This document shows, one piece after another, positions 3,230 through 27,736 of a stretch of DNA of 64,000 nt. This stretch comes from an uncultured Rhizobium sp. (GTDB lineage Bacteria > Pseudomonadota > Alphaproteobacteria > Rickettsiales > UBA1997): positions 40,900 to 104,899 of the forward strand of contig CAYSUM010000002.1 in assembly GCA_964434225.1 (NCBI GenBank). The letters run 5' to 3'. The position numbers and the translations under genes were made by a program. The notes under the pieces were generated by a model that was not told the DNA's origin, made no database searches, and was given only the letters and a program-made list of their open reading frames with translations. The number at the start of each line of letters is the position of its first letter. Positions within the stretch are counted from its first letter, which is position 1.

Positions 3230-5722
3230 ATGTTCATCCCTCTTCGCAATCACACAACTTACTCGCTTTGCAAAGGTGCAATAAAAATTCCTGAGTTGAT
3301 TGAACGCGCTGTCGCTTACAAATTACCTGCTCTTGGCATTATGGATTGTCAAAATCTTTTCGCCGCTTTGGAATTTTCTTCAGCTTGCAAAAAGATTGGA
3401 ATTCAACCGATTTTGGGCTGCGAAATGTTGGTAAGCTTCGACGATCCAAATCGCAAAAATCTTTCCAATCTCGATATTGAAAATTCCTTCGCCAAATTGC
3501 CTTTAATCGCCCAAAACGAAGAAGGTTATAAAAACTTGATGTATCTGGTCAGCGACAGTTTTTTAAATCGTCAAAATGGACTTTCGCCTCACATTTCTTT
3601 TAGCTTGTTAAAAGAAAAATCCGCTGGATTAATTGCTCTTTCCGGCGGGGTTGAAGGCTTTATTGGCAAGCTTTTGCAACAATCTCAAGATAAAAAATTA
3701 GTCGAATTAATTAGCGAATTTACTCAAACTTTTCCGCAAAATTTTTACATCGAAATCACCCGTCACCAAACTAAAGAAGAGCAAAACTTGGAGGAAAAAT
3801 TCATCGACATTGCCTTCAAACACAATCTACCATTGGTTGCAACCAACGACGTTTATTTCATCTCGCGCGAAATGCACGAAGCACAAGATATTTTAAGCTG
3901 TATCGGCGAAGGCAGATTTTTCTTACAACCCGATCGCCCAAAACTTTCACCCGAGCAATATTTTAAGAATCAGCAAGAGCTCGAAGCCTTATTTAGCGAT
4001 ATTCCAGAAGCGATTGAAAATACCATCAACATCGCAAAAAAATGCCATATTATGGCGTTTGAGCGTCAACCAACTTTGCCAAAATTTAGTAACGAAGCCA
4101 ATTTTAACGAAGCCGAAGAGCTAAAAAAAGAAGCCTCTAAAGGCTTAAAATTACGCCTGCAACGCAAATTTGAAATTGAAGAAATTTCGCCCCAAAGACA
4201 AAAAGAAATCGAAATTGAATATTTCGCCCGCCTTGATTTTGAGGCTTCTGTCATCATTAAAATGAACTTCTCGGGATATTTTTTAATCGTATCCGATTTC
4301 ATAAAATGGGCCAAACATAATGACATTCCAGTTGGTCCGGGGCGCGGTTCGGGTGCCGGCTCTATCATTGCTTGGTCGCTGGAAATTACCGACCTCGATC
4401 CAATTCGTTTTGGTTTACTTTTTGAAAGATTTTTAAATCCCGATCGCGTTTCAATGCCCGATTTTGACGTCGATTTCTGCCAATCGCGCCGCGACGAAGT
4501 GATTAATTATGTACAAAACAAATATGGCCGTGATTACGTTGCTCAGATTATCACTTTCGGAAAATTGCAAGCTCGCGCCGTCTTGAAAGACGTGGGTCGC
4601 GTGTTGCAAATGCCTTACAATCAAGTTGACCGAATTTGTAAATTAATTCCCTTCAACGCCATAGAAGCCGTAACTTTGGAAAAGGCGATCGACATGGATA
4701 AAGACTTGCAACAAGCCATTAAAGAAGATCCACAAGTTACGAAATTGGTTGATATTGGCCTGAAACTTGAAGGCCTAAATCGTCACGCTTCAACGCACGC
4801 AGCCGGCGTGGTTATTGGCGACAAACCACTTCGTGAAATCTGCGCTTTGTATAATGACGAAGGCTCCGAAATGCCAGCCGTTGGCTATTCAATGAAATAT
4901 GCCGAAGGCGCTGGATTAGTAAAATTCGACTTCCTTGGCTTAAAAACTCTGACCACAATTTTCGAAGCTGTAAAGTTAATCGAAAAAACTCGCGGCGTAA
5001 AAATCGATATTTCCAATCTTAAACTCGACGACAAACAAACCTTCGATATGCTTGCCACTGGAGACTCGATCGGTGTTTTTCAAATTGAATCTTCAGGAAT
5101 GCGATCAATTCTGCGCCAAATGAAATCCGACAAAATCGAAGATATTATCGCTCTAATTTCGCTGTATCGCCCCGGCCCAATGGACAATATTCCAACCTAT
5201 ATTCGCCGCAAACATGGCGAAGAAAAAATCAACTACCCTCACCCACTTTTAGAACCAACACTGAAAGAAACTTACGGCGTAATTGTTTACCAAGAACAAG
5301 TGATGGAGATTGCCAAAGTTCTTGCGGGTTATAGTCTTGGAGGTGCCGATTTACTGCGTCGCGCTATGGGTAAAAAAATCAAAGAAGAGATGGATCAACA
5401 ACGCGCAATTTTTGTAAATGGTGCGATGAAAAATAGGGTTTCTGAAAAACAAGCGGGAGAAATTTTTGATCTGGTCGATAAGTTTGCGGGCTACGGTTTC
5501 AACAAATCCCACGCCGCCGCTTACGCTTTGATTTCGTACCAAACCGCTTATCTAAAAGCGCATTATCCAGTCGAATTTTTTACCGCTTCAATCAATCTGG
5601 AAATTGATAATACCGACAAAATTAACATCTTCCTTCAAGCCGCCAAAGACAACGGAATTGCAATTCTGCCACCAGATATAAATGCCAGCGAGGCTTATTT
5701 TAGTGTCGAAAAAATATCGTAA
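3230..5722 (+). CDS. dnaE: DNA polymerase III alpha subunit, N-terminal 830 residues only (PHP, palm, thumb, most of fingers); the C-terminal third is absent
   Basis: The start MFIPLRNHTTYSL (PHP domain), GPGRGSGAGS, PDFDVDFC, YRPGPMD and FNKSHAAAYA motifs are all present. The ORF ends at ...ILPPDINASEAYFSVEKIS*, where full-length DnaE continues ~330 aa (HhH, clamp-binding motif, OB fold, tau-binding). Confidence 0.9.
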   Translation: MFIPLRNHTTYSLCKGAIKIPELIERAVAYKLPALGIMDCQNLFAALEFSSACKKIGIQPILGCEMLVSFDDPNRKNLSNLDIENSFAKLPLIAQNEEGYKNLMYLVSDSFLNRQNGLSPHISFSLLKEKSAGLIALSGGVEGFIGKLLQQSQDKKLVELISEFTQTFPQNFYIEITRHQTKEEQNLEEKFIDIAFKHNLPLVATNDVYFISREMHEAQDILSCIGEGRFFLQPDRPKLSPEQYFKNQQELEALFSDIPEAIENTINIAKKCHIMAFERQPTLPKFSNEANFNEAEELKKEASKGLKLRLQRKFEIEEISPQRQKEIEIEYFARLDFEASVIIKMNFSGYFLIVSDFIKWAKHNDIPVGPGRGSGAGSIIAWSLEITDLDPIRFGLLFERFLNPDRVSMPDFDVDFCQSRRDEVINYVQNKYGRDYVAQIITFGKLQARAVLKDVGRVLQMPYNQVDRICKLIPFNAIEAVTLEKAIDMDKDLQQAIKEDPQVTKLVDIGLKLEGLNRHASTHAAGVVIGDKPLREICALYNDEGSEMPAVGYSMKYAEGAGLVKFDFLGLKTLTTIFEAVKLIEKTRGVKIDISNLKLDDKQTFDMLATGDSIGVFQIESSGMRSILRQMKSDKIEDIIALISLYRPGPMDNIPTYIRRKHGEEKINYPHPLLEPTLKETYGVIVYQEQVMEIAKVLAGYSLGGADLLRRAMGKKIKEEMDQQRAIFVNGAMKNRVSEKQAGEIFDLVDKFAGYGFNKSHAAAYALISYQTAYLKAHYPVEFFTASINLEIDNTDKINIFLQAAKDNGIAILPPDINASEAYFSVEKIS

Positions 5723-5854: not shown

Positions 5855-8800
5855 ATGGACTACAAAGTAAAACTCAAAAACATCAAAGAATCTTCAATCT
5901 TAACCAAGATTCCCGCCGATGCGCAAATATTTCTTACCGCTGAAATCGCCAAAAATTTCTCCGATTCTGACTTAGTTTTTATCGCGCAAAATGATGTCGA
6001 AATGGAATTAGCGCAAAAGCAAATCCAATTTTTTGCACCCGATTTTGAAATTATAAATTTTCACGCTTGGGATTCTTTGCCTTACGATCGCGCCTCGCCA
6101 AAACAGGCTATTCTTGCCAATCGCATCAAAACTCTGCACCGACTTATTACCCGCAAAAATGGTCAGAAATTTTTTATCATTGCTTCAATAAATTCAGTTT
6201 TACAAAAAACCATCGCGCCAAGTCGTATCAAAGATTTGGGACTTTATTTGCAAGTTGGTAGCAAAACTTCTCTCACGCAAATTGCTGAATTTCTAGTCGC
6301 CAAGGGCTACGAACGCCAAGCTTGCGCCAATAATATCGGCGAATTTGCTGTGCGTGGTGGCATCGTTGACGTTGTGATGCAACAAGCCGCAGACTTGATT
6401 GGTTATCGCGTTGATTTTTTTGGCGATGAAGTTGAATCGATAAAAGTTTTCGATCCAATTACGCAAATCACGCAAGAAAATGTTAAATCGTTAGAAATTC
6501 TTCCAGCTTCCGAAGTTTTGATGAGCAAAAAAACTGTCGAGAATTTTCGCCAAAAATATCGCGCCGCTTTTGGTGCGGCAATTGACGATCAGCTTTACGC
6601 CGCGATTTCCGAAATGCGTTCTTACAGCGGAATGGAAAACTGGCTGCCATTTTTTTATGAAGAAGAATTGGTTAGTTTTTTTGATTATTTGCAAAATCCG
6701 ACGATTTTTTTTAACGAGAAAATTTTTCAACAAGCTCAACATCGCGAAGAGCTGGTGAATGAATATTATCAAGCTCGCGTCGCTGAACGAAAAATTAAAG
6801 ATAGTATAATTTATAATCCAATCGAACCGGATTTACTTTATTTTAGCGCTGAAAATTTCAGAAAAAATTTAGAGAAAAATCTCACAATTCAGTTTAATCA
6901 ATTTGATAGTAATGAAAAAAATCAACGCGTCCTCGACTTAGAAATTAAGCCAGTTCCCGACTTTGCTCTGGCTGGAAAAACCAACCAACAAGATCCGCTA
7001 AATTTAGTTAAAGAATTTACCGCTGACAAAAAATTCGTCATCGCTTGTTTGAGTGAAAGCTTCAAAGAGCGCATCGGCAAAATTCTGCCCGATTACAACC
7101 TAAAATGCCCGATAATCGTGCTGCCGCTGCATTTCGGATTTTACACTTCCGACATGATGATGATTGGCGAACAAGCAATTTTTGGTGAAAAAATTGTCCG
7201 CAAAAAAACCAGCAAAGCTGCGTCACAAAGATTGATCGAAGAAGGTTTGAGCATCGCTTCCGGTGAACTTGTGGTGCATCGCGATCATGGCATTGGTAAG
7301 TTTGATAATATTCACACCATTGCTGCTGGCGGCATCAAAACCGACATGATTAAAATTTTATACGGCGGCAATGATACGCTTTTTGTGCCCGTCGACGATA
7401 TTAATTTAATCACACGTTACGGCGCCGATAATCCACTGATTCAACTTGATCGTTTGGGTGTTGCGGCGTGGAAAAATCGTAAAGAAAAAGTTCGAAAAAG
7501 AATTAAAGTCGCCGCAGAAGAACTCTTGAAAATTGCGGCGGCGCGCCACTTGAAAAAAGCCCCAATCTTTGTTCCCGATCAACATTTTTACGACGAATTT
7601 AAAACTCGTTTCGGCTTCGTTGAAACCGAAGATCAAATGCGCGCCATCGAAGAAGTTGAAGAAGATTTGGCCAAAGGCTCGCCGATGGATCGTTTAATTT
7701 GCGGCGATGTTGGCTTTGGCAAAACCGAAGTTGCACTACGCGCAGCTGCTTCGGTTGCAGGTTCAAACCAAAGAACACAAGTTGCAGTTGTTGCACCAAC
7801 CACACTTTTAGTTCGTCAACATTTCAAAAATTTTTCAAAAAGATTCGAAGGAACTAATATCAAAGTTGCACAGCTTTCGCGTTTGGTAAATTTATCGGAC
7901 TCGAAGAAAGTCCGCGAAGAACTTGAATCAGGCCAAGTGCAAATCGTAATTGGCACGCACGCGCTTTTGCAAAAAACTATCAAATTCAAAAATTTAGGAT
8001 TGGTGATTGTTGACGAAGAACAACATTTTGGCGTTGCACAAAAAGAACGCTTGAAAGAATTGCGTCACGAAGTTCACGTTCTAACACTTTCGGCCACGCC
8101 AATTCCGCGCACTTTGCAGATGTCGCTGACGGGAGTAAAAGATTTGAGTTTGATTTCAACGCCACCGCTTGATCGTTTGGCGGTGCGCAATTTTGTAATG
8201 CCTTACGATTCTGTAATCGTGCGCGAAGCCGTGATGCGCGAACATAATCGTGGCGGAAGAGTTTTTTTCGTCGTGCCGAGAATCACCGATATTACTGAGA
8301 TGGAACCGCGTTTAAAAATTTTATTACCTGAGTTAAAAATCACTCACGCTCACGGCCAAATGACTCCAAGTCAGCTTGATAAAATTATGAACGATTTTGT
8401 TGATGGCAAAATCGATATGTTACTTTCAACCACAATTGTGGAATCTGGCATCGATATTTCTGATGCCAATACGATGATTATTTACAAATCGGAAATGTTT
8501 GGATTGTCGCAACTTTATCAACTGCGCGGTCGGGTGGGGCGCGGTAAAGTTCGCGCTTATTGCTATTTTATGCTCGATAATCGAAAAAAAGTTTCGGACG
8601 AATCGCGTAAAAAATTGGAAGTGATGCAGAATTTAGATTCGCTTGGCGTTGGCTTTACCGTAGCAACTCACGACATGGATATTCGCGGCAGCGGCAATTT
8701 ACTTGGCGACGAACAATCTGGTCATATTAATGAAACTGGGGTTGAACTTTATCAGCAGATGTTGCTTGAGACGATTGAAGAACTGAAGAATCAAAAAAAT

Positions 8801-9298
8801 ATTGTTAAAACTACAGTCGAAGAATTTGTTGATCGCGATTTTGCCGTACAAATTAAGCTGGGAATTTCGCTGCTGATTCCAGAAGATTACATGCAAGATT
8901 TGAGCTTGCGCATGAGCTTCTACAAAAAAATCGCCAATATTAAAAATGATGAAGATGAAGAGAATTTAATTAACGAAATGAGTGATCGTTTTGGAAAAAT
9001 TCCGGCGGAAGTTTTAAATTTAATGGAAATCGCCAAGTTGAAATGGCTGTGCAAGAAAGTTGGTGTCGAAAAATTGGAAGCTGCTTCTGAGGGAATTTTA
9101 ATCAGCTTCAAAGACAATAAATTCGCCAATCCCGATGCTTTATTAAAAATGATTTTTTCAAGCAAAAATCAAATCAAAATTCATCAAGGACAAAAGGCGC
9201 TTTTTGTTTGCGATGCAAAATCGCCAGAGAATAAAATTGCTTCAGCTTTAAAAGTGATTGATCAATTACAAAAGCTGCTTGGAAATTATCCAATTTAA
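5855..9298 (+). CDS. mfd: Transcription-repair coupling factor
   Basis: Superfamily-2 helicase motifs are present (GDVGFGKTEVA, VIVDEEQHFG, LTLSATPIPRT, QLRGRVGR), along with a CarD-like domain and a UvrB-homology N-terminus. I moved the start to the ATG at 5855 (MDYKVKL...) because the 26 upstream codons of the track ORF lie in the palindromic repeat. Confidence 0.95.
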   Translation: MDYKVKLKNIKESSILTKIPADAQIFLTAEIAKNFSDSDLVFIAQNDVEMELAQKQIQFFAPDFEIINFHAWDSLPYDRASPKQAILANRIKTLHRLITRKNGQKFFIIASINSVLQKTIAPSRIKDLGLYLQVGSKTSLTQIAEFLVAKGYERQACANNIGEFAVRGGIVDVVMQQAADLIGYRVDFFGDEVESIKVFDPITQITQENVKSLEILPASEVLMSKKTVENFRQKYRAAFGAAIDDQLYAAISEMRSYSGMENWLPFFYEEELVSFFDYLQNPTIFFNEKIFQQAQHREELVNEYYQARVAERKIKDSIIYNPIEPDLLYFSAENFRKNLEKNLTIQFNQFDSNEKNQRVLDLEIKPVPDFALAGKTNQQDPLNLVKEFTADKKFVIACLSESFKERIGKILPDYNLKCPIIVLPLHFGFYTSDMMMIGEQAIFGEKIVRKKTSKAASQRLIEEGLSIASGELVVHRDHGIGKFDNIHTIAAGGIKTDMIKILYGGNDTLFVPVDDINLITRYGADNPLIQLDRLGVAAWKNRKEKVRKRIKVAAEELLKIAAARHLKKAPIFVPDQHFYDEFKTRFGFVETEDQMRAIEEVEEDLAKGSPMDRLICGDVGFGKTEVALRAAASVAGSNQRTQVAVVAPTTLLVRQHFKNFSKRFEGTNIKVAQLSRLVNLSDSKKVREELESGQVQIVIGTHALLQKTIKFKNLGLVIVDEEQHFGVAQKERLKELRHEVHVLTLSATPIPRTLQMSLTGVKDLSLISTPPLDRLAVRNFVMPYDSVIVREAVMREHNRGGRVFFVVPRITDITEMEPRLKILLPELKITHAHGQMTPSQLDKIMNDFVDGKIDMLLSTTIVESGIDISDANTMIIYKSEMFGLSQLYQLRGRVGRGKVRAYCYFMLDNRKKVSDESRKKLEVMQNLDSLGVGFTVATHDMDIRGSGNLLGDEQSGHINETGVELYQQMLLETIEELKNQKNIVKTTVEEFVDRDFAVQIKLGISLLIPEDYMQDLSLRMSFYKKIANIKNDEDEENLINEMSDRFGKIPAEVLNLMEIAKLKWLCKKVGVEKLEAASEGILISFKDNKFANPDALLKMIFSSKNQIKIHQGQKALFVCDAKSPENKIASALKVIDQLQKLLGNYPI

Positions 9299-14054: not shown

Positions 14055-15211
14055 TAGACCAACTCCTCAAATTCTTTAATTGCATAACGATCGGTCATTC
14101 CGGCAATGTAATCCGAAATAAAAATCGCTAAAGTTTTTTTATCGGTAATTTTTAACGCTTCAGCGGCGCGTTCATCGGGCAAACAGCTTGGGGTTTCGAT
14201 GTAAAAATCAAACAAGCCGCTGACAATTTTTTTCGCACTTGCTGTCATACGATTCACTGTCGAATGACGATACATATTTTGCATCAGAAATTTTTTTAAA
14301 GCTTGGTGTGCCGCTTCCATTTCGGGAGAAAAATGCACTAAAAATTTTCCACATAAACGCACATCTTTTTCGCTTTCGATTTTATTTTCTGCGAGGTTTT
14401 TTTGCGTCACATCAATCACATTAATTACCATCGCCAAAGTCAGACGTTTTTTGGCCTCGCCGACTAATAATTCTCGCTTAATTTCTGGATATTGCACCAA
14501 AATTTCTTGATAAATTTTACCGATTATAGGCAATTCAAAAAGCTCTTCGATCTTGAATAATTCAGCACGCAAACCGTCTTCGATATCGTGATTATTGTAA
14601 GCAATATCATCGGAAATTGCCGAAATTTGTGATTCGATTGACGGAAAATGTTTAATGTCTAAATCATGCTTAAAATCGTAATCACGAATATAATCGTGAA
14701 GCCCTTCTTTTTCTAAGATTGGGCCATTATGTTTTACAACACCTTCCAACATTTCCCACGATAAATTTAAGCCTTCAAATTCGATAAAACGAGTCTCTAA
14801 TTTTGTGATAATTTTTAGCGTGTGGGCATTGTGAGAAAAGCCGCCAAAATCTGCCATTTTTTCATTTAATGCATCTTCGCCAGCATGTCCAAAAGGGGTG
14901 TGACCCAAGTCGTGAGCCAGCGAAACGATTTCGGCTAAATCTTTGTTAACTTTAAGAGCGCCAGCAATCCAACGTGCAATTTGTGCAACTTCCAAACTAT
15001 GCGTAAGTCTTGTGCGGTAATGATCGCCCTCATGATTTACAAAAACTTGGGTTTTATATTGCAAACGACGAAAAGCTGAAGAATTGATGACGCGATCACG
15101 ATCGCGACCAAAAACTGAACGATATTTTGAATCGTCATAATTCTCGGAGTAAAGCCTGCCACGCGATTTCGACTCATCAACTGCGAAAGGCGCTAATTCA
15201 AAATTTATCAT
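14054..15211 (-). CDS. dGTPase-like deoxynucleoside triphosphate triphosphohydrolase (HD domain)
   Basis: FRRLQYKTQVF, RLTHSLEVAQI and AHDLGHTPFGH motifs are present in a 385-aa protein. Confidence 0.9.
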   Translation of the reverse strand: MINFELAPFAVDESKSRGRLYSENYDDSKYRSVFGRDRDRVINSSAFRRLQYKTQVFVNHEGDHYRTRLTHSLEVAQIARWIAGALKVNKDLAEIVSLAHDLGHTPFGHAGEDALNEKMADFGGFSHNAHTLKIITKLETRFIEFEGLNLSWEMLEGVVKHNGPILEKEGLHDYIRDYDFKHDLDIKHFPSIESQISAISDDIAYNNHDIEDGLRAELFKIEELFELPIIGKIYQEILVQYPEIKRELLVGEAKKRLTLAMVINVIDVTQKNLAENKIESEKDVRLCGKFLVHFSPEMEAAHQALKKFLMQNMYRHSTVNRMTASAKKIVSGLFDFYIETPSCLPDERAAEALKITDKKTLAIFISDYIAGMTDRYAIKEFEELV

Positions 15212-15348
15212 TTAATCAAGGTTAGAATTACAAAAATCACACCCAAAGTTAGCAAAACGATTCCAAGAGCAATTGTGGTTGCTTTAGCCATTATCAACGC
15301 TTTATCAGGATTTGGGTCTGGCTTTTCTTGAGGTTTTTCTTCGGTCAT
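15208..15348 (-). CDS. Candidate 46-aa single-pass membrane protein (below the ORF-track size cut-off)
   Basis: My translation is MTEEKPQEKPDPNPDKALIMAKATTIALGIVLLTLGVIFVILTLIK*. Its ATG overlaps the TAA of the upstream gene (TAATG) and its TGA overlaps the dGTPase ATG (ATGA), so it exactly fills the 136-nt gap. Confidence 0.4.
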   Translation of the reverse strand: MTEEKPQEKPDPNPDKALIMAKATTIALGIVLLTLGVIFVILTLIK

Positions 15349-16455: not shown

Positions 16456-17667
16456 TTAAGAAATTACACCGAGTTTTTTTCCAACCTTTATGAATGCCGC
16501 AATAGCAGAATCTAGATGGTCTCTTTCATGCGCCGCCGAAATTTGTACACGAATGCGCGCTTCATTTTTTGGCACAACTGGAAACGAAAATGCAATGACA
16601 TAAATCGATTCTTCTTCCACCATCATTTTGGCAAATTTACTGGCCAATAAAGCATCGCGCAACATTACAGGCACAACGGGATGAACTCCGTTTTTGTCGC
16701 GCACATCAAATCCAGCTTCAACCATTTTTGCTCTGAAATAAGCGGTATTTTCGGCAACTTTTTTGATCAAAGTTTTTGACTTCAAAATCATATCCAAAAT
16801 TTCAATTCCTGCCGCCGCAACCGCTGGTAAAATATTATTCGAAAAAAGATAAGGACGCGCTTTGTTGCGCAATTTATCGATCACTTCTTTTTTGGAAGCG
16901 ACGAAGCCCCCACCCGCTCCGCCCAAGGCTTTTCCAAGAGTTGAAGTTAGAATATCAACCCGACCTTCAACACCGCAAAGTTCCAAAGTTCCGCGACCAT
17001 TTTCGCCGATAAATCCTGTAGCATGAGAATCGTCAACCAAAACCAAAGCATCATATTTTTCTGCTAAATCGCAGATTGTTTTCAAATCAGCAATGTCGCC
17101 ATCCATTGAAAATACACCGTCGGTGACTATAACACGATTTCTGTTTTGTTGAGCATCTTGTAATTTTTTTTCTAAATCTGACATGTCGTCAAATTTGTAA
17201 AAATAGCGCGCGGCTTTGGAAAGTCTGATTCCGTCAATCAAACTGGCATGATTTAAATCAGCAGAAATAATCGCATCTTGTTCATCAAAAAGCGCTGCAA
17301 ACACGCCACCATTAGCGGCAAAACAAGAAGAAAAAGTTATAACATCTTCAAATCCTAAAAATTCTGCGAGTTTTTTTTCGAACTGTTTATGTAAATCAAA
17401 AGTACCACAAATAAAGCGAACTGACGCAGTTCCAAGCCCATATTCATCAAGCGATTTTTTTGCCACTTCCACCAGATTTTTGCTATTAGCCAAACCTAAA
17501 TAATTATTAGCACAAAAATTCAAAACTTTCTTTTTTGAATTTTTGTGAGTGATTTCAATTTCCGATGATTGCGAAGTGATAATTTCATATTCACTTTTGT
17601 AGAGACCGCTTGATTTTAGATCTTCCAACTCAGATTTGATATCGTTTAGAAATTGCTGCTTGATCAT
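16456..17667 (-). CDS. kbl: 2-amino-3-ketobutyrate CoA ligase (glycine C-acetyltransferase)
   Basis: The protein is collinear with E. coli Kbl as I recall it: NFCANNYLGLAN, ASVRFICGT, DGVFSMDGDIA, DDSHATGF, TLGKALGG, FSFPVVPK. Confidence 0.9.
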   Translation of the reverse strand: MIKQQFLNDIKSELEDLKSSGLYKSEYEIITSQSSEIEITHKNSKKKVLNFCANNYLGLANSKNLVEVAKKSLDEYGLGTASVRFICGTFDLHKQFEKKLAEFLGFEDVITFSSCFAANGGVFAALFDEQDAIISADLNHASLIDGIRLSKAARYFYKFDDMSDLEKKLQDAQQNRNRVIVTDGVFSMDGDIADLKTICDLAEKYDALVLVDDSHATGFIGENGRGTLELCGVEGRVDILTSTLGKALGGAGGGFVASKKEVIDKLRNKARPYLFSNNILPAVAAAGIEILDMILKSKTLIKKVAENTAYFRAKMVEAGFDVRDKNGVHPVVPVMLRDALLASKFAKMMVEEESIYVIAFSFPVVPKNEARIRVQISAAHERDHLDSAIAAFIKVGKKLGVIS

Positions 17668-17737
17668 TTTGAAGATTAATTTTGTTTGGTTTTTAAGACA
17701 GATAGGTTCAAAGAAGATTAAAATTCATACCAGACAA

Positions 17738-17765
17738 TTGACAAGTCAAAATTGCCAAATAGTTT
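17738..17765 (+). promoter_or_regulatory. Candidate sigma-70 promoter for the MNIO cassette
   Basis: TTGACA (17738-17743), a 16-nt spacer, then TAGTTT (17760-17765), ~70 nt upstream of the precursor ATG. The -35 is embedded in the palindrome TTGACaaGTCAA. Confidence 0.25.
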
Positions 17766-17832
17766 GCGCCACCATCAACACCGCCACAAACCTATCTTTT
17801 CCTTATAAAAAAATCTTAATCTAGGTAAAACT

Positions 17833-18159
17833 ATGAACAAAAAATTCTTGCAGTCAGTTGCTGCTGGTATTGCTACCCTAAGCCTTGTTGCTTCTTGCTC
17901 ACACTTGGGTCTTAAAAAAGAATCTAACACTTGTGGCGCTAAAAATGGTTGTGCGGCCGCTACTAAAAAAGACGAAGCTCACAAATGTTCTTCAAAAAAC
18001 AAAGAAGCTCACAAATGTGCAGCTGTAAAAAAAGAAGAAGCTAAAGAAGTTAAAAAAGCAGAAACTACTAAAAAAGGTCACAAAAAACACAAAAAAGCTG
18101 AAGTTGTAAAAGCTGATGCCGCTAAAACTGAAGCTAAAACTGAAGAAAAGAAAAACTAA
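17833..18159 (+). CDS. Secreted lipoprotein with Cys motifs and a Lys-rich tail; candidate MNIO RiPP precursor (bufferin/HvfA-like)
   Basis: Signal peptide and lipobox LVAS|C22 come first. These are followed by CGAKNGC and two EAHKC(S/A)(S/A) motifs, then a K/E/A-rich tail. The gene lies 10 nt upstream of the DUF692 gene. Confidence 0.6.
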   Translation: MNKKFLQSVAAGIATLSLVASCSHLGLKKESNTCGAKNGCAAATKKDEAHKCSSKNKEAHKCAAVKKEEAKEVKKAETTKKGHKKHKKAEVVKADAAKTEAKTEEKKN

Positions 18160-18168
18160 TTTTTAGTT

Positions 18169-19038
18169 ATGAGTTTTAGAAAAGTTCCGACTCCAGCAAA
18201 TTTAGTTGGGGTCGGGCTTCGATCCCCTCACATCTCCTACATCCTTACAAATCCCAAAAAAATTTCACAAAAAATCGGTTGGTTTGAAGTTCACAGCGAA
18301 AACTATTATGCCGATCAAAGCACGCTACAAAAGGATTTACTTACTATTCGCAAAAATTTCCCTATCAGCTTACATTCGGTTGGAAACTCTCTTGGATCAG
18401 CGCAAAAGCTTGATCTAATACACTTAAAGAAATTAAAAAATCTGGTTGAAAAAGTTGAACCATTTTTAATTTCAGATCATATTTCTTGGGGCAGAATTGA
18501 CGGCAATCACTTAAACGATTTATTGCCTCTACCCTACACCAAAGGCACTTTAAAGGCTATCTCTCGCAATATTTTGCAAATGCAAGATTTTTTAAAACGC
18601 GAAATTTTAGTCGAAAATCCTTCCGCTTATTTAGCCTTTAAAAATCAAGAAATGGACGAAGCAGAATTTATTAATGCTCTGACAAAAGAAACCGGCTGCG
18701 GATTATTACTTGACGTAAATAACATTTTTGTAAGCTCGCAAAACTGCTCCCAATTTGATCCGGTGAGCTATCTAAAAAAATTAAATAAAAAAATTGTCAA
18801 AGAAATTCATTTAGCCGGACATTCGAAATCGCAAATTTTTGACGGCAAAAATCATCAAGAAATTTTGATCGATACTCACAATAATTTAGTGTGCGACGAA
18901 GTCTGGGAAATCTACAAATTAGCCATTAAACGCTTTGGACCAGTTCCATCTTTAATTGAGTGGGATCAAGATTTTCCTGAATTTAATGTACTTTTGGATG
19001 AAGCAAAAAAAGCGCGGGAGATTTTAAAAAATGACTAA
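18169..19038 (+). CDS. DUF692 family multinuclear non-heme iron oxidase (MNIO; MbnB/BufB/HvfB-like)
   Basis: 289 aa with family hallmarks GVGLRSPH, WFEVHSENY, SLHSVGNSLGS, ISDHISWG, LLPLPYT, LVENPSAY, GLLLDVNNIFV, HLAGH, IDTH and SLIEWD. Confidence 0.9.
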   Translation: MSFRKVPTPANLVGVGLRSPHISYILTNPKKISQKIGWFEVHSENYYADQSTLQKDLLTIRKNFPISLHSVGNSLGSAQKLDLIHLKKLKNLVEKVEPFLISDHISWGRIDGNHLNDLLPLPYTKGTLKAISRNILQMQDFLKREILVENPSAYLAFKNQEMDEAEFINALTKETGCGLLLDVNNIFVSSQNCSQFDPVSYLKKLNKKIVKEIHLAGHSKSQIFDGKNHQEILIDTHNNLVCDEVWEIYKLAIKRFGPVPSLIEWDQDFPEFNVLLDEAKKAREILKND

Positions 19039-19762
19039 TTTAGCGAAACTTCAACAAGATTTTGCCAAACATATTTATCAAAAATCTGACAAAAAAATCT
19101 TAAGCGAAATAATTTATTCCAACATTGAGGCTCTAGAGCGCTTAAATATTTACCGCAATAATATTTTGGGAAATTTTGAATCAATTTTATCTTCAACTTT
19201 TATTGTAACTAAAAAAATTTTAGGTGAAAAAGAATTTGATAGGTTAACGCAAAAATTCTGTCAAAAATTTCCTTCAAAAAGTGGCGACCTAAATGAATTT
19301 GGCACCGAATTTCCGCAATTTATAAAATCTTACGAGCCCAAATATTTAAAGGATTTGGCGCAGCTAGAACTTTTTTATCATCAATCTTATTTTGCCCCAA
19401 GGCCTCAAAACAAATTCGATCTAAATAAATTTAAAAAAATCAAAGCTGAAAATTTTTCTAAAATTACTTTTACTCTAAATCCGTCTTGCATTTTACTTAC
19501 TTCAAAATTTGCAATTTTTACGATTTGGAAAAAAGAAAAGAAAATTAAAAATTTCGCCAAGCCAGAATTTGCAGCAATTCACAGCAGTAAAATTTTATTG
19601 TTAAATGCTGAAGAATTTTTGTTTTTATCGCTAATTTTACAAAAAAAACCGCTTTATAAAATCTACGAATCACTTTGCAAAAAAAGTAAAAAAGAAATCG
19701 ATATTGGCGCTTTAATTAATCGTTTTATTGCCGACGAAACAATCATAAAATTTTCTTTATGA
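19031..19762 (+). CDS. DUF2063 family protein (MNIO partner, BufC/HvfC-like)
   Basis: The N-terminal LQQDFAKHIY...ERLNIYRNNILGNFESIL..FP..KKILGEKEFDRL region is typical of DUF2063. It overlaps the DUF692 gene by 8 nt. Confidence 0.8.
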   Translation: MTNLAKLQQDFAKHIYQKSDKKILSEIIYSNIEALERLNIYRNNILGNFESILSSTFIVTKKILGEKEFDRLTQKFCQKFPSKSGDLNEFGTEFPQFIKSYEPKYLKDLAQLELFYHQSYFAPRPQNKFDLNKFKKIKAENFSKITFTLNPSCILLTSKFAIFTIWKKEKKIKNFAKPEFAAIHSSKILLLNAEEFLFLSLILQKKPLYKIYESLCKKSKKEIDIGALINRFIADETIIKFSL

Positions 19763-20721
19763 AAGAATTTCATTTGATTGAAAAATATTTTAAACCACTG
19801 ACAAAATCCTGCAAAGCCGCACAAAATCTGGCTGATGATGTTGCTAAAATTAATTTAAAAAAAGATGAAGAATTGGTAATCAGCAAAGATCTTTTTGTTG
19901 AAGATGTGCATTTTTTACGCATTGATGGCGGATTTAAAATTGCTTCCAAACTTTTACGCACCAACCTTTCCGACCTTGCTTCTTCTGGCGCAAAGCCCCT
20001 TCATTACATGTTAGGATTTTCTAAAAATGATTATACTGACGAAAAATTTCTGCGCGAATTTTCTCGCGGACTAAAATCAGTTCAAGATGAATTCGGGCTT
20101 TGTTTGATTGGTGGCGACACGGTTAAATCGGAAAAACTTTTTTTCTCGGTAACTATTTTTGGAATTGCCAAAAAAGGAAAAATTTTATCACGCAATCAGG
20201 CAAAAAAAGATGATTTGATTTTTGTTTCAGGAGCAATTGGCGATGCTTTTTTGGGTCGATGCTTTAAAAAACTCAGCGCAACCGAATTGCAGGAACGTCA
20301 TTTTTTTCCAACTCCACGAATTAATTTGGGTAAAAAACTATTAGAAAAAAAATTATCACGCTGTGCGATCGACGTTTCTGATGGCTTAATTGCTGATTTA
20401 AATCATATTTGCACAGCTTCAAAACTCGCTGCTGAAATTCATTTAAATCACCTTCCAATTTCAACGGCAGCACAAAAATTCTTGCAAAAAAATTCTCAAA
20501 TAAAAATTGGTGATCTAATTTCTGGCGGCGATGATTATGAATTAATTTTCGCGGTAAATCCAAAAGATAGAAAAAAAATTTCAGACTTATCAAAATCTTT
20601 GAAGCTTGATTTGACATGTATCGGCGCGTTTAAAGAATCGTCGAATAAAAAATTTAATGTCACGCTATTCAACGAAAAAAATCGCAAGATAATAATCAAA
20701 AAAACCGGCTATGAACATTGA
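19759..20721 (+). CDS. thiL: Thiamine-monophosphate kinase
   Basis: AIR-synthase-like fold with EFHLIEKYF, DDVAKI, SKDLFVEDVHF, NLSDLASSGAKP and GGDT. Its start overlaps the DUF2063 stop (ATGA). Confidence 0.85.
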   Translation: MKEFHLIEKYFKPLTKSCKAAQNLADDVAKINLKKDEELVISKDLFVEDVHFLRIDGGFKIASKLLRTNLSDLASSGAKPLHYMLGFSKNDYTDEKFLREFSRGLKSVQDEFGLCLIGGDTVKSEKLFFSVTIFGIAKKGKILSRNQAKKDDLIFVSGAIGDAFLGRCFKKLSATELQERHFFPTPRINLGKKLLEKKLSRCAIDVSDGLIADLNHICTASKLAAEIHLNHLPISTAAQKFLQKNSQIKIGDLISGGDDYELIFAVNPKDRKKISDLSKSLKLDLTCIGAFKESSNKKFNVTLFNEKNRKIIIKKTGYEH

Positions 20722-21400
20722 AAGATTTATAAATCTAAAGTCCGACGAAAATAAAGGAATTTACGCTGGATCTTTTAGACGAAGCGTCGCTGCTATGCTT
20801 GATGTGACGATTGTTTTATTCATCCGCGTCGTTACAGCCCAAGCCCTAGGAATTCTTTTTGTTAATCAAGAATTGCAAAGATTTTTACTCGAATTCAAAG
20901 ATAAATTTGGCACTGATTTTGTAAAAAATAATCCCGATCACATTGATTTTGTTCTACATCATCGTTTCTTTCTTGTGGCTTTGATTTTTTATACCGCCGT
21001 AATTTTTATCGGCGCACTTTATCACGCATTATTAAATTCATCATCTTGGCAAGCCACAATTGGCAAACGTGTAGCCAGTATTGCTATTGAAAAAGAAAAC
21101 GGTTCACGCATTAGTTTTGGACTTGCGCTTTCGCATTATTTTTTATCAGTTTTGCCATTTCTTTTTATCATGTATTTGATCTCTTATCAAGTAAGTCATG
21201 ATATCACTTTCTTCCAAGCGGTTACCGCATCAACATTCAATGTATTTTTCGGAATTTTGTTCCTACTTTGGACGCAAATTCACAGCTTCACTAAAAGAAA
21301 AACCACCGCTTATGATTTGATTTGCAAAACCGTTTTGGTGAATAAAAAAACCACCGCAAAATTTCCTTGGAATAAAGAAAAAATCAGTAATTTTTTGTAA
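20711..21400 (+). CDS. RDD family membrane protein
   Basis: YAGSFRRSVAAMLDVTIVLFI N-terminal RDD-type motif with 3-4 TM segments. Confidence 0.7.
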   Translation: MNIERFINLKSDENKGIYAGSFRRSVAAMLDVTIVLFIRVVTAQALGILFVNQELQRFLLEFKDKFGTDFVKNNPDHIDFVLHHRFFLVALIFYTAVIFIGALYHALLNSSSWQATIGKRVASIAIEKENGSRISFGLALSHYFLSVLPFLFIMYLISYQVSHDITFFQAVTASTFNVFFGILFLLWTQIHSFTKRKTTAYDLICKTVLVNKKTTAKFPWNKEKISNFL

Positions 21401-21473
21401 CAAAAATCCCTTTGAAATCTAGGGCTGTCGTGCTGATATGATGGACATCTCATTTCAATAAATTTTATTACAA

Positions 21474-22337
21474 ATGTTCATTTCCTCACAAAAAACAATT
21501 AACAGCAAAGTTAGTTGCAACGGCATTGGGTTGCATTCTGGCACCGATACTACGATCACATTATTTCCAGCTCCTTGCGATACTGGAATTGTTTTTAGAA
21601 GAACCGATCTTGAAACAGCTAAGAACAGCATCAAAGCTATTTATAGCAATGTCGTTACCACAAATTTAGGAACTACGATCGCCAATGAATTCGGCGCTAA
21701 AGTTTCTACTATCGAACATTTAGTTGCAGCACTTTGGGGTTGTGGAATTGATAATATTTTTATCGATATTGACAGTCCGGAAGTTCCAATTATGGATGGC
21801 AGCTCTGAACCTTTCGTGTTCTTGCTTGAATGCGCTGGCGTTACCGTTCAAGATAAAGCACGACACATTATTGAGGTTTTAAAAACCATCACCGTTGAAG
21901 AAGCCGACGGCAAGATAATTGAAGTTAGTCCAGCTGAAGAATTTTCAATTAATCTGCACATCGACTTCAATCATAAACAAATCCAGAAACAAAGCTTTGA
22001 TTACAAAACAACTTTTGCTTCTTTCAAAAACGACCTTTGTCGTGCCAGAACTTTTGGCTTTAAACACGAAATTGAACAATTACACAAAATGGGTTTAGCC
22101 AAAGGCGGTTCTCTTAAAAACGCTATTTTGGTTGGCGAAGATGGAATTGTGAATGAAGAAGGATTGCGCTACAAAGATGAATTTGTCAGACATAAAACTT
22201 TAGATTTTATCGGCGATATTTACTTGGCAGGATATTATATTTCTGGCCAATTTAAAGGCACGAAGACTGGACACGGAATCAATAACAAGATGTTGCGTAA
22301 ATTGTTGAGCGACGAGACAGCTTGGAGATTGATTTAA
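21474..22337 (+). CDS. lpxC: UDP-3-O-acyl-N-acetylglucosamine deacetylase
   Basis: GIGLHSG, STIEHL, EVPIMDGSS, RTFGF and HKTLDFIGD motifs are present. Confidence 0.93.
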   Translation: MFISSQKTINSKVSCNGIGLHSGTDTTITLFPAPCDTGIVFRRTDLETAKNSIKAIYSNVVTTNLGTTIANEFGAKVSTIEHLVAALWGCGIDNIFIDIDSPEVPIMDGSSEPFVFLLECAGVTVQDKARHIIEVLKTITVEEADGKIIEVSPAEEFSINLHIDFNHKQIQKQSFDYKTTFASFKNDLCRARTFGFKHEIEQLHKMGLAKGGSLKNAILVGEDGIVNEEGLRYKDEFVRHKTLDFIGDIYLAGYYISGQFKGTKTGHGINNKMLRKLLSDETAWRLI

Positions 22338-22339
22338 AT

Positions 22340-22690
22340 TTAGAAGTGATGAATATAGCCAGCTTCCGCCTCACCCACCTTACTCTCGCGCAGATCACAA
22401 CTTGATGCGATTTCTGGCGGTAAATTTTTTAGTACGAATGATCTGCCATCTGGCAAACGAATTGGCGTATAATTTTCTGAAGTTCTGAGTCTTTTTTTAT
22501 TAAGATAAGAAGCGTTAATTGCAGCTCTCATATCTTTAGAATGAACATATTTAACCAAAATTGCTTTGCCGTTAGGGCAAATAATTTCAGTATTAGTATC
22601 TGGCATTTTTGTTAAAAACGAACAGGAATTAATCTGCATCAAAAACAATAGCAGAAAAATTTTATTGAGCCGCTTTGACTTGTCCGACAT
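22340..22690 (-). CDS. Hypothetical lipoprotein (116 aa from the internal ATG)
   Basis: The MSDKSKRLNKIFLLLFLMQINS|C signal is lipobox-like. I chose the start at 22690 because the 5' part of the track ORF overlaps bamE in another frame. I cannot recognise a family. Confidence 0.4.
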   Translation of the reverse strand: MSDKSKRLNKIFLLLFLMQINSCSFLTKMPDTNTEIICPNGKAILVKYVHSKDMRAAINASYLNKKRLRTSENYTPIRLPDGRSFVLKNLPPEIASSCDLRESKVGEAEAGYIHHF

Positions 22691-25762: not shown

Positions 25763-27736
25763 ATGTTTTTAATACACAGAAGTAAGAAAGCTTTTTCTAT
25801 TATCGAGATCGCTATGGTGATTGTCATAATTGGCATTTTAATAGCTGGAATAGCTTCCCTAAATGGTTTTGTATCAAAATTTCGCATAACCACCGCCCAG
25901 TCTTTGACTCGCTCTTCTCCCATAAGCACCATCAGAGACAATTCTCTCTGGCTTGAAACTAGTATGGAAAACAGCTTTAATGATATTGAAAGCAAAGACC
26001 AATCTGCATTAACAAATTGGTATGAACAAAGAAATGCTGCTAATAAAATAGCCTTACAAGCTGTAAATGGCGGCCCAACTTACTCAAATAGTATCAACAA
26101 AATTCACGCCGTAAAATTCACTTCTTCGGGTGGTTATTTCACCTTTGATGCCAAATTTTTGAACAACACCGACTATACAATCACGATTCTTGAAAACAGG
26201 GAAAGCAATTCAAGTGACAACTATTTTTTAATTCATAATTCCATTTCAAGTCCAAGCGTCACAACTGCAAATCAAGATCTATTACTTGGTTACAATACTG
26301 ATGGCCAAATAATTCACAGCCAAGGCGGCATCAGTTCTTACAATTCCAACGTTAGCAACTACGGAAATTCTAGCGGCTTTCCAAAAATAATTACTTTTAC
26401 TCACAGCTCAACAAAAGGGAAAAAGATTTATATTAACGGAATGCTTGCTGCAAAAGACGAGGCCAATAAAAGCAACTTAACTGGCATCACAACTCTTGCG
26501 CTTGGCAAAGGATATACTGGTCAAATTGGCGAAGTTATAATTTTTACCAGAGCCATTGAAGCATCTGAAATTAGTGCAATTGAAGATTATCTTGCCCAAA
26601 AATGGTATATAAAAATCGATCGCAATACATCCGACTGCACAACTGGAGTTGCAACCACTTCTGGATGTGATACTTCTTCTGGCGGCAGTGGTGGCGGTGG
26701 CTCAGTGACTTGTCCCGTTTTAGTCACTGGCGTAACTAGCACAACTCCGGTAAATAGCGGCGCAGGATCTTTAAATTGCGACGCCACAAACTTTGATGGT
26801 GGCACAATTTCTTATGATTGTTCGGGAGGCGTATTGACGCCAGCATCTAGTTGCCAATGCGCTGTCGGATACATCCTCTCTGGTAGTACTTGCGTCTTGA
26901 AACCTACTTGTTCTGGTGGAACTGAAACAACAATAGGCGGCGAAAAAATCCATAAATTTACTTCTTCTGGAACCCTCACTTGCACTAACGCAATTACTGG
27001 AGCAAAAGTTCTTGTTGTTGGTGGCGGTGGCGGTGGCGGTTGGAGGGGCGCTGGTGGTGGAGCTGGTGGCTATGTTTACAACTCAGCTTTAGATTTAGCT
27101 TCTGGATCATACACAATAGATGTTGGCGCTGGTGGCGCTGGTGCAATTGGCTCTACTAATCAGCCTACCGCTCAAGGATCTGACGGTCAAGGATCATCGA
27201 TAAAATTGGGTGCAACGTCAATCATTACCACAGTTGGTGGTGGTGGTGGTGGAGCTGGTAGCGCCGGAACTGATGCTCTTGCTAGTGGTCGTAATGGTGG
27301 TTCTGGCGGCGGTGGAAGTTATTGGGGAGATTATAGAGCTGCTGGCGCTGGAACTTCGGGACAAGGTTTTGCTGGTGGTGGCGGTAGTACAAGTACACCA
27401 TGTTCTGGCGGTGGTGGTGGAGCAAGTTCTGCCGGATCTGTTGGTTCCACCGTTGGTGGTAACGGAGGCGCAGGAGCATCTAATTCAATTAGCGGTATCA
27501 CTCCTACGCCTTATTATGCTGGAGGCGGTGGTGGCGGATGCCATACTTCTACTGGCGGACTTGGCGGAAGCGGCATTGGCGGTAATGGCGGTTCTAGAAA
27601 TGCGCCATCAGATATACCCGCGACTGCTGCTGTGGCAAATACTGGATCTGGTGGCGGAGGCGGTAATAGCGGTAACTACGGTGGTAGTCAAAACGGCACC
27701 GCAGGTAGCGATGGTATTATCATCATACGCTATTAG
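25763..27736 (+). CDS. Prepilin-leader protein fused to a LamG-like domain, a Cys-rich linker and a C-terminal glycine-rich domain
   Basis: The N-terminus is MFLIHRSKKA|FSIIEIAMVIVIIGILIAGIA, an N-methylation-type motif with Glu5. The GQIGEVIIFTRAIEASEISAIEDYLAQKWYI ending is typical of LamG_3-type jelly rolls. There are 8 Cys in residues ~305-395. After this, KVLVVGGGGGGGWRGAGGGAGGY...NTGSGGGGG...GSDGIIIIRY* resembles 'glycine-rich domain' proteins as I recall them. Confidence 0.75.
   Translation: MFLIHRSKKAFSIIEIAMVIVIIGILIAGIASLNGFVSKFRITTAQSLTRSSPISTIRDNSLWLETSMENSFNDIESKDQSALTNWYEQRNAANKIALQAVNGGPTYSNSINKIHAVKFTSSGGYFTFDAKFLNNTDYTITILENRESNSSDNYFLIHNSISSPSVTTANQDLLLGYNTDGQIIHSQGGISSYNSNVSNYGNSSGFPKIITFTHSSTKGKKIYINGMLAAKDEANKSNLTGITTLALGKGYTGQIGEVIIFTRAIEASEISAIEDYLAQKWYIKIDRNTSDCTTGVATTSGCDTSSGGSGGGGSVTCPVLVTGVTSTTPVNSGAGSLNCDATNFDGGTISYDCSGGVLTPASSCQCAVGYILSGSTCVLKPTCSGGTETTIGGEKIHKFTSSGTLTCTNAITGAKVLVVGGGGGGGWRGAGGGAGGYVYNSALDLASGSYTIDVGAGGAGAIGSTNQPTAQGSDGQGSSIKLGATSIITTVGGGGGGAGSAGTDALASGRNGGSGGGGSYWGDYRAAGAGTSGQGFAGGGGSTSTPCSGGGGGASSAGSVGSTVGGNGGAGASNSISGITPTPYYAGGGGGGCHTSTGGLGGSGIGGNGGSRNAPSDIPATAAVANTGSGGGGGNSGNYGGSQNGTAGSDGIIIIRY

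Follow-up and report, generated by a model that had tools for sequence, protein, structure and literature searches.

The locus at positions 17738–19762 of the DNA studied here raises the question of which product is made by three adjoining genes that encode a small Cys-rich lipoprotein, a multinuclear non-heme iron oxidase (MNIO; DUF692) and a DUF2063 protein, and that lead directly into thiL. The DNA is a 64-kb window (38% G+C) of contig CAYSUM010000002.1, and all coordinates are window positions. By analogy with characterised systems, and with a probability of about three in four, this cassette makes a lipid-anchored, Cys-derived copper-binding peptide and is a reduced cluster of the bufferin/captophorin type, a class of peptides made by the ribosome and then altered by post-translational modification (RiPPs). 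The mechanism proposed below (modification, export and lipidation, copper chelation) is transferred from characterised homologues; the facts established for the window and its relatives are at the level of genes.

Gene organization of the cassette

The precursor is encoded by an open reading frame (ORF) of 108 aa (17833–18159, plus strand), separated by a 9-nt spacer (18160–18168) from the MNIO gene. The MNIO and DUF2063 ORFs share an 8-nt overlap, and the DUF2063 stop codon and the thiL start codon share the sequence ATGA, a 4-nt overlap with thiL beginning at 19759. A conserved −35 hexamer, TTGACA, begins at position 17738; no ORF starts there. The features are as follows.

17738–17765, plus strand: promoter-like element, recognised from the sequence and from an alignment of orthologues; −35 TTGACA at 17738–17743, 16-nt spacer, −10-like TAGTTT at 17760–17765
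17833–17895, plus strand: predicted signal peptide of the precursor, residues 1–21, MNKKFLQSVAAGIATLSLVAS, ending in the lipobox L-V-A-S before Cys22
17896–18024, plus strand: Cys-rich core of the precursor, residues 22–64, with Cys22, C34-G-A-K-N-G-C40 and two E-A-H-K-C-(S/A)-(S/A) motifs
18019–18159, plus strand: Lys/Glu/Ala-rich C-terminal tail, residues 63–108 plus the stop codon, ending in ...KTEEKKN
18169–19038, plus strand: MNIO (DUF692) maturase of the BufB type, 289 aa, assigned with Pfam and NCBIfam
19031–19762, plus strand: DUF2063 partner of the PME1/BufC type, 243 aa, with an N-terminal DUF2063 helical domain and a C-terminal domain resembling RiPP recognition elements (RREs)
19759–20721, plus strand: thiL (TIGR01379, 271 bits against a cut-off of 184)
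20711–21400, plus strand: RDD-family membrane protein (PF06271)

An initial annotation of this DNA had described the ORFs as they are found here by reading the sequence, including the 8-nt overlap, the ATGA junction and the passage of the cassette straight into thiL; the gap between precursor and MNIO, given there as 10 nt, measures 9 nt. Its assignment of the enzyme genes to a RiPP-type cassette is supported by Pfam matches of both. The genes thiL and RDD are translationally coupled downstream housekeeping genes, probably co-transcribed with the cassette and outside the RiPP function.

Precursor lipoprotein

After MNKKFLQSVAAGIATLSLVAS|C22 the precursor has four more Cys, at residues 34 (codon 17932–17934), 40 (17950–17952), 52 (17986–17988) and 62 (18016–18018). 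These are arranged in the motifs CGAKNGC (C34 and C40), DEAHKCSS (C52) and KEAHKCAA (C62), and a 46-aa tail follows C62. The mature peptide would comprise 87 aa, with 25 Lys, no Arg, 11 Glu, 2 Asp and 5 His.

Searches of a 5.8-billion-protein collection revealed 62 homologues at E ≤ 0.01. The existence of these homologues and the conservation of lipobox and Cys in the family indicate that the small ORF is a real lipoprotein gene and that the arrangement did not arise by chance. The family is a narrow one, of about 110 small lipoproteins (53–123 aa) from aquatic metagenome-assembled genomes (MAGs) labelled Rickettsiales, since its profile reaches just 55 cluster representatives at E ≤ 1e-3 among 1.84 billion.

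The signal peptides of the family follow the pattern M(N/K)K(K/N)F(L/I)(Q/K)S..., and M1, N2, K3, F5, S8, L16 and L18 are invariant in an alignment of 35 sequences. In the same alignment Cys22 and Cys34 are invariant and Cys52 is conserved in at least 90%. The lipobox Cys is invariant in the family and preceded by (V/A/I/L)(A/T/S)(S/A); the PROSITE-type (PS51257-type) lipobox rule is passed by 108 of 112 members, the four failures being mis-called starts. Residue +2 is Ser, Ala or Asn, never Asp. Judged by this pattern rule and by conservation, Cys22 is the predicted lipidation site, and the signal peptide and lipobox first noticed in the single sequence, as well as the Cys positions, thus hold across orthologues. 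The precursor combines a signal peptidase II (SPII) signal, a canonical lipobox and an invariant Cys, the features by which the lipidated precursors known as DAG-RiPPs are recognised.

The number of Cys beyond the lipobox varies from 2 to 7 among the 62 homologues and reaches 9 in additional relatives. The first Cys pair is spaced 6 apart, as in CGAKNGC, in 49 of the 62 members and 5 apart (CxxxxC) in 8. The sequence context was counted over the 234 non-lipobox Cys of the family. Position −4 is Glu in 142, position −3 is Ala, Ser or Lys, position −2 is Asn in 169 and His in 54, and position −1 is Lys in 111, Gly in 51 and Thr in 32. Downstream, position +1 is Ser, Ala or Gly in 217, +2 is Ala or Ser and +3 is Lys. 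The small residue at +1 fits the tolerance of FonBC, which accepts just small uncharged residues after Cys (PMC13097082). The H-K-C motif, singled out in the initial annotation as a special feature, is a local variant of (N/H)-K-C-(S/A); Asn is commoner than His at −2, and the His is not a conserved ligand. Lys (or Gly/Thr) at −1 and the small +1 residue place the precursor in the published Lys-Cys group (PMC13097082), and the window peptide itself has K-C dyads at C52 and C62. The four core Cys (C34, C40, C52 and C62) are, by analogy, predicted to be MNIO targets and/or disulfide sites.

The tails of family members have a median length of 35 aa and consist of 36% Lys, 16% Ala and 15% Glu. The ending ...KTEEKKN is kept among close relatives, and distant members, L036 for one, have a short tail or none. 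In the AlphaFold2 (AF2) model of the precursor only the helix at residues 3–26 is confidently modelled, with a predicted local distance difference test score (pLDDT) above 80 over residues 1–20; pLDDT stays below 50 in the mature part, where helices at 62–83 and 89–101 are of low confidence. The model suggests that the mature peptide is probably disordered, its tail being disordered or weakly helical. A role of the tail as an Lpp-like helical tether was also considered and remains speculation, given the low confidence of these helices.

The precursor has no curated match in Pfam and NCBIfam at E ≤ 10, and the same search with eight relatives included gave only noise (Asr, histone-H1-like, faint BufA2 and CefA). 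BufA1/DUF2282 (PF10048) gives no hit at E ≤ 10, and AF2 predicts disorder, not a folded domain. BufA2 (NF050166) gives no hit with the precursor, and with a cut-off of 60 bits the distant member L039 reaches 12.1. CefA/EGKCG (NF038108) likewise gives no hit, the sequence contains no EGKCG, and the relative P0037 reaches 12.8 bits against a cut-off of 30. The profile search thus agrees with the earlier description of the precursor as atypical.

Modification enzymes

The MNIO matches Pfam PF05114 (4e-97; 325 bits against a cut-off of 25) and passes the cut-off of the NCBIfam model MNIO_BufB (NF050167; 344 bits against 310). It scores below the cut-off for HvfB (NF003818; 219 bits against 360) and fails the NCBIfam cut-offs for MbnB, ApyH and ChrH as well. 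Among solved structures, 3BWW is its nearest relative in sequence (E 8e-38). Fifteen residues, H42, E44, H69, D103, H104, E149, N150, D182, N184, H214, H218, D235, H237, E264 and D266, are invariant in 27 members of the MNIO clade, and these ligand-type residues align with conserved motifs of 3BWW. This His/Asp/Glu/Asn set is of the iron-ligand type and covers the catalytic Asp of the family; the assignment of single residues to iron sites is inferred. The invariance of these residues and the identities of 64–92% among the best 120 homologues listed indicate that the MNIO is under strong constraint.

In MNIOs with Lys-Cys substrates the published specificity positions are R-R and D-F, and in those with Cys-Lys substrates D-D (PMC13097082). 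The enzyme of the window has R18-S19 and D266-Q267, the latter invariant in its clade, so that the Cys it accepts cannot be predicted by analogy.

The 243-aa protein matches Pfam PF09836 (1.3e-22; 80.3 bits against a cut-off of 27.2). With 54.6 bits against a cut-off of 142 for NCBIfam HvfC (NF050145) it is not an HvfC equivalog, and a search of PDB sequences gave marginal matches only, 3DEE at E 0.088. Its AF2 model, built on 37 homologues, has a mean pLDDT of 89.7. The best Foldseek match of this model in the PDB is TglI (8hi7_A; E 2.5e-4, probability 1.00, TMq 0.56), the partner protein of the MNIO TglH, and the C-terminal ~100 residues match the RRE proteins TbiB1 (probability 0.97–0.99) and PqqD (probability 0.63). 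These structure matches point to a PME1-type partner with a peptide-recognition domain.

Orthologous loci and their taxonomic range

When the profile of the precursor was run against a single genome from each GTDB species, 23 loci were found. All are in MAGs labelled Rickettsiales, Alphaproteobacteria or Pseudomonadota, except for evidently mislabelled “Rhizobium” and “Rickettsia typhi” records. One of the 23 precursor-bearing genomes is UBA2645, assigned to Candidatus Gamibacteraceae, a family from fresh water, sea water and aquifers with reduced metabolism, no ATP/ADP translocase and an unknown lifestyle (Schön et al.). The source of the window is an aquatic, Rickettsiales-labelled lineage related to Ca. 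Gamibacteraceae. The genome was taken in the initial annotation to be reduced and associated with a host, which is plausible at most; the MAGs of the relatives come from lakes, the sea and aquifers.

The MNIO gene is located immediately downstream of the lipoprotein gene in 19 of the 23 species-representative genomes, with DUF2063 next wherever the contig reaches. The order lipoprotein-(MNIO-DUF2063)-thiL-RDD-lpxC is kept across relatives, with kbl divergent upstream. In the reverse direction, two MNIO orthologues were chosen independently, among the hits of the MNIO search; immediately upstream of each lies a lipoprotein ORF of the family, as is the case for every orthologous MNIO/DUF2063 pair examined; no enzyme pair lacking an adjacent secreted Cys ORF was found among these loci. 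The proposal that this ORF is the conserved partner of the enzymes is thereby strengthened. The co-location of MNIO, PME1 and a Cys-rich Lys-Cys precursor, by which captophorins are recognised, is found in the window, and the gene order is kept in all enzyme-bearing loci examined.

Two deviations from this layout concern the surroundings of the cassette. In one subclade (L016 at 7873–8826 and L021 at the same position) a 317-aa opposite-strand ORF with no Pfam match lies between DUF2063 and thiL and breaks the translational coupling found in the window. In the more distant relatives L006 (1159–4184) and L041 (1–877), the cbb3 oxidase genes ccoN/FixO/FixQ are located just upstream of kbl and the cassette, and YhdP takes the place of lpxC downstream of RDD. 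The cbb3 oxidase is a copper enzyme, and its nearness to the cassette may be coincidental.

Probable reduction of the cluster

Distant relatives with the same precursor family carry clusters of canonical composition. The marine loci L036 and L037 contain precursor, MNIO, DUF2063 and DoxX in an unrelated neighbourhood (L036, 4001–6283). The loci L038 and L039 contain DUF2282/BufA1 (Pfam 9e-24), the lipoprotein precursor, MNIO, DUF2063 and DoxX; in L039 (693–3373) thiL and RDD follow. In L031 (6001–9225) DoxX (2e-17) follows DUF2063; a 232-aa opposite-strand ORF of unknown function lies there between MNIO and DUF2063. The MNIOs of these relatives are 56–62% identical to that of the window, and the EWDQD motif is common to both.

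Searches of the window by tblastn revealed neither DoxX (proteins of L031, L036 and L039 as queries; best E 0.47) nor BufA1. The initial annotation had rightly recorded the absence of DoxX and had treated it as an anomaly; its presence in the distant relatives L031, L036 and L039 points instead to a lineage-specific loss. DoxX is frequent in such clusters and not defining (PMC12452194), and published bufferin clusters occur “in various combinations” of core genes. Since distant relatives carry the canonical cluster, the simplest history suggested by these comparisons is that the cassette of the window is what remains of a bufferin cluster after loss of bufA1 and doxX, the ancestral cluster having consisted of BufA1, the lipoprotein precursor, BufB, BufC and DoxX next to thiL. 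A second, lipoprotein-type precursor in the ancestral cluster would explain why a BufB-type enzyme now stands beside a precursor that is neither DUF2282 nor BufA2. A functional link of the cassette to thiamine metabolism through thiL was rejected, the precursor-MNIO-DUF2063-DoxX genes of L036 and L037 being located in an unrelated context.

Probable promoter and transcription

When the upstream regions of 11 orthologues are aligned, AATTGACAAG, A81 and A83 do not vary, the remaining TCAAA bases are conserved in at least 90%, and ATA..TT is conserved. The same regions contain a near-invariant AATTGACAAGTCAAA, a conserved TA(G/A)TTT located 16 nt after TTGACA, and AGGTAAA just before the ATG. 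The cassette thus appears to have what looks like a sigma-70-type promoter with a perfect −35. A consensus scan found promoter-like sites no more often than expected by chance and missed this conserved promoter, whose −10 fits 3 of 6 positions; it found no terminator-like site within 17500–22500. The lack of such a site and the overlapping or near-abutting reading frames suggest a single transcript through precursor, MNIO, DUF2063, thiL and RDD, and probably lpxC.

A 12-nt perfect palindrome, TTGACAAGTCAA (17738–17749; also 17736–17750), overlaps the invariant −35. It is exact in 22 MNIO-bearing loci, about 85–95 nt upstream of the precursor ATG, and L004 and every MNIO-less locus have a degenerate right arm. 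Further copies in the window, which could have pointed to a regulon, were looked for and not found. The palindrome might be the operator of some regulator; its left half is simply the −35, and the degeneracy of the right arm may reflect just phylogeny.

Proposed mechanism

Transcription from the conserved sigma-70-like promoter would yield one message for precursor, MNIO, DUF2063, thiL, RDD and possibly lpxC. In the cytoplasm, the DUF2063/RRE partner would bind the 108-aa prepropeptide, and the iron- and O2-dependent BufB-type MNIO would convert some of the four core Cys to 5-thiooxazoles, each in a four-electron oxidation (−4 Da). BufB and BufC introduce this group into precursors that leave by the Sec route and bind periplasmic Cu (PMC11626156), and in a revision of the structures the same product is assigned to HvfBC, FonBC and the gonococcal system (PMC13097082). 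The chemistry has meanwhile been revised: 5-thiooxazoles, not oxazolone/thioamide pairs, are now assigned to HvfA- and BufA-type products (PMC13097082, PMC11626156).

The likeliest targets would be the K-C-(S/A) sites C52 and C62, because in HvfA the K-C-G repeats are modified and the N-terminal Cys pair stays a disulfide (PMC11252979). C34 and C40 could also be modified or could form a disulfide like this pair of HvfA. The product would be exported by Sec and lipidated at Cys22 by Lgt, LspA and Lnt with removal of residues 1–21, a route with a precedent in NedA, an EGKCG precursor with an SPII signal that was isolated with both the MNIO modification and triacylation (PMC13056109). The mature 87-residue, largely disordered, polycationic lipopeptide would be tethered to the membrane facing the periplasm, or possibly at the cell surface, where it may chelate copper via its thiooxazoles and buffer copper stress. 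In the course of evolution this lineage would have lost bufA1 and doxX, and some sister lineages bufB and bufC as well, with the lipoprotein kept.

Lipoprotein genes without the enzyme pair, and alternative explanations

In four of the 23 species (L022, L026, L030 and L032) the lipoprotein gene directly precedes thiL, with no MNIO or DUF2063 gene between them, and the metagenome contigs L007, L008/L009 and L033 have the same arrangement. This arrangement is a new observation. The gap between lipoprotein gene and thiL is 0–480 nt at these loci, the peptides have 2–9 Cys, and the conserved promoter segment CAATTGACAAG is kept. The loci are scattered among MNIO-bearing ones in neighbour-joining trees of thiL and of kbl, which as single-gene trees are not robust, and this scatter suggests that the enzyme pair was lost several times independently and the peptide retained. 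Such organisms either use the peptide unmodified or have the enzyme genes at another place in the genome. Bufferin precursors in general also occur without maturase genes (PMC12452194).

The persistence of the peptide evidently without a cis-encoded maturase, in the four species and the contigs L007, L008/L009 and L033, weighs against a modified, lipid-anchored copper peptide as the product of the cassette. So do the specificity positions of the MNIO, which differ from those of Lys-Cys MNIOs, and the failure of the precursor to fit any of the curated models BufA1/DUF2282, BufA2 (NF050166) and CefA/EGKCG (NF038108). The lipidation is a matter of a pattern rule and of conservation, and both this locus and its whole precursor family are known from genes alone.

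It is possible, although unlikely, that the lipoprotein is an autonomous envelope or metal-binding protein that acts through unmodified thiolate, His and Lys groups and was ancestrally the first gene of a thiL-RDD-lpxC operon; MNIO and DUF2063 would then be an optional addition or would act mainly on another substrate, for example a BufA1 encoded elsewhere. Consistently, the gene, its promoter −35 and its 2–9 Cys are kept at the MNIO-less loci, whose scatter in the thiL and kbl trees points to repeated loss of the enzymes alone, and the tandem BufA1 of L039 indicates that the BufB-type enzyme ancestrally had a second, classical substrate. In addition, unmodified HvfA still binds 2–3 Cu(I), weakly (PMC11252979). 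However, the window and all close enzyme-bearing relatives contain neither BufA1 nor any other nearby candidate substrate, and the lipoprotein gene, 9 nt upstream of the MNIO gene, occupies the standard precursor position. The strong constraint on the enzymes, visible in the identities and invariant ligand-type residues given above, makes sense only with a substrate, and the MNIO-less genomes might carry the enzyme pair elsewhere.

It is equally doubtful that the peptide has become a core envelope component, with a bufferin cluster shortened to BufB/BufC and a lipid-anchored Lys-Cys peptide and established at the head of an essential thiL-RDD-lpxC operon, and with the peptide outlasting repeated losses of its maturase. 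If so, the lipopeptide, with its clade-specific polycationic tail, would depend just partly on thiooxazole formation and could serve, for example, in copper handling at the cell/host interface or in envelope tethering, a case of a RiPP turning into a housekeeping lipoprotein.

A further explanation, distinctly less probable than these, is that the peptide is exported and not lipidated; signal peptidase I (SPase I) would cut after V-A-S, and a bufferin-like peptide beginning with Cys would be set free in soluble form in the periplasm. Val at −3 and Ser at −1 also suit the SPase I rule, and this peptidase processes HvfA and most of the bufferins characterised (PMC11626156, PMC11252979); an SPase I site would, however, not need the invariant +1 Cys, and [LVI..][AST][SA]C meets the lipobox rule in 108 of 112 members. 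Finally, decay of the cassette to a bufferin relic in a shrinking genome, with the modified product no longer made, is very improbable: bufA1 and doxX are already gone and sister lineages lack bufB and bufC, yet the three ORFs are intact and tightly coupled (9-nt gap, 8-nt and 4-nt overlaps), the catalytic-type residues of the MNIO are invariant, its best 120 homologues listed are 64–92% identical, and the promoter is conserved.

Relation to known systems

A lipid-anchored copper peptide of this kind would have its closest counterparts in lipo-NedABC of Neisseria dentiae and in the lipidated oxazolin and bufferin subsets (“DAG-RiPPs”; PMC13056109). In both cases a Lys-Cys-repeat precursor with an SPII signal is encoded directly upstream of MNIO and DUF2063 genes, and cytoplasmic modification followed by Sec export and lipidation, with proposed copper sequestration at the membrane, is common to the two, here judged from genes alone. 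NedA differs in having EGKCG repeats and an HvfB-type MNIO, whereas the window has E-A-(H/N)-K-C-(S/A) motifs, a Cx5C pair, a long K/E/A tail and a BufB-type MNIO.

The bufferins Buf1 and Buf2 of Caulobacter vibrioides (bufABCD; PMC11626156, PMC12452194) resemble the cassette in an MNIO that passes the BufB model, a DUF2063 partner and a Sec-exported Cys precursor; distant relatives of the cassette share DUF2282/BufA1 and DoxX with them. Unlike these clusters, the window lacks DoxX as well as any DUF2282 or BufA2 precursor, and no SigF/NrsF regulators adjoin the cassette. BufA1 folds as a small protein, whereas the window precursor is predicted by AF2 to be disordered.

Oxazolin (HvfA), fontiphorin (FonA), gonophorin and the Lys-Cys captophorins (PMC11252979, PMC13097082) share with the precursor a signal peptide, an N-terminal Cys pair and x-x-K-C-small repeats. 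As in the window family, the repeat number of HvfA, FonA and gonophorin varies between orthologues, and the peptide is unstructured, as is predicted for the window precursor. The window precursor differs in lacking the EGKCG 5-mer and any match to NF038108, and its MNIO has R-S/D-Q in place of the R-R/D-F of FonB and other Lys-Cys enzymes. The signal of HvfA is of the signal peptidase I type, and that of the window precursor of the SPII type. Small MNIO-adjacent ORFs with lipoprotein signals are also found among the CxxxxC precursors of “cluster X” and the unclassified signal-peptide/Cys ORFs upstream of MNIO genes (PMC13056109; PMC12452194, Table S2), and several members of the window family likewise have CxxxxC, for example CNTNSC and CSTNKC.

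The initial annotation had suggested that a membrane-tethered metallophore would be new. That claim did not survive comparison with the literature (PMC12452194, PMC13056109), in which lipidated bufferins and oxazolins and lipo-NedABC are already known. Lipoprotein signals occur in about 16% of Buf2 bufferins, and unclassified ORFs with a signal peptide and Cys are found by the hundred upstream of MNIO genes (PMC12452194). Bufferin and oxazolin subsets with SPII signals and a CxxxxC lipoprotein cluster have been described (PMC13056109), and triacylated, MNIO-modified lipo-NedABC has been isolated experimentally (PMC13056109; PNAS 2026). Three groups of captophorins are recognised, and precursors with Lys-Cys repeats form one of them (PMC13097082). 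The type of system is thus known, and the cassette adds a member to the bufferin/captophorin family and not a new system.

The new elements are modest. One is a precursor family outside all curated models, with its own motif and a polycationic tail; the others are the occurrence of the cassette in aquatic Rickettsiales-labelled bacteria, its junction with an essential operon, and a reduction series ending in an enzyme-free precursor. Rickettsiales are reported as depleted in MNIO-PME1 clusters (PMC13097082), and five Rickettsiales loci are counted there. The family strings ANKCS, AHKCS and CGAKNGC do not occur in the accessible part of its supplementary text, nor do MNKKFLQSV and CGAKNGC in that of PMC12452194.

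The locus extends the bufferin/captophorin class of copper peptides to aquatic Rickettsiales-labelled bacteria and defines a precursor family that has no curated model, about 110 small lipoproteins with (H/N)-K-C-(S/A) repeats. The natural series from BufA1, lipoprotein, BufB, BufC and DoxX, through lipoprotein, BufB and BufC as in the window, to the lipoprotein alone could show which components are dispensable and whether unmodified peptides keep their function. The combination of a BufB-type enzyme, a Lys-Cys-type substrate and Gln at a specificity position offers a useful test of substrate-selectivity rules. The current picture of how such systems work is unchanged by these findings.

Other genes of the window

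A Pfam scan of 35 ORFs of the window assigned 34 to housekeeping functions (cell division, lipid A, fatty-acid synthesis, dnaE, mfd, gdh and others) or left them without a known function. The only one not resembling a housekeeping gene is a 657-aa ORF (25763–27736) between fabH and ruvC, with a C-terminal Gly_rich_2 domain (PF21722, 2e-19).

The dnaE ORF (3230–5722) is just 830 aa long. The PHP, polymerase and finger domains are present and the usual C-terminal beta-binding/OB region of ~300 residues is absent; mfd begins 54 nt downstream. The short ORF could be a truncated gene, a split gene or an assembly problem.

A 46-aa ORF (15208–15348) with a hydrophobic C-terminal half is located between genes for an HD-domain dGTPase-like protein and a DUF900 lipoprotein, and it is also called as a gene in the relatives L001, L002 and L008.

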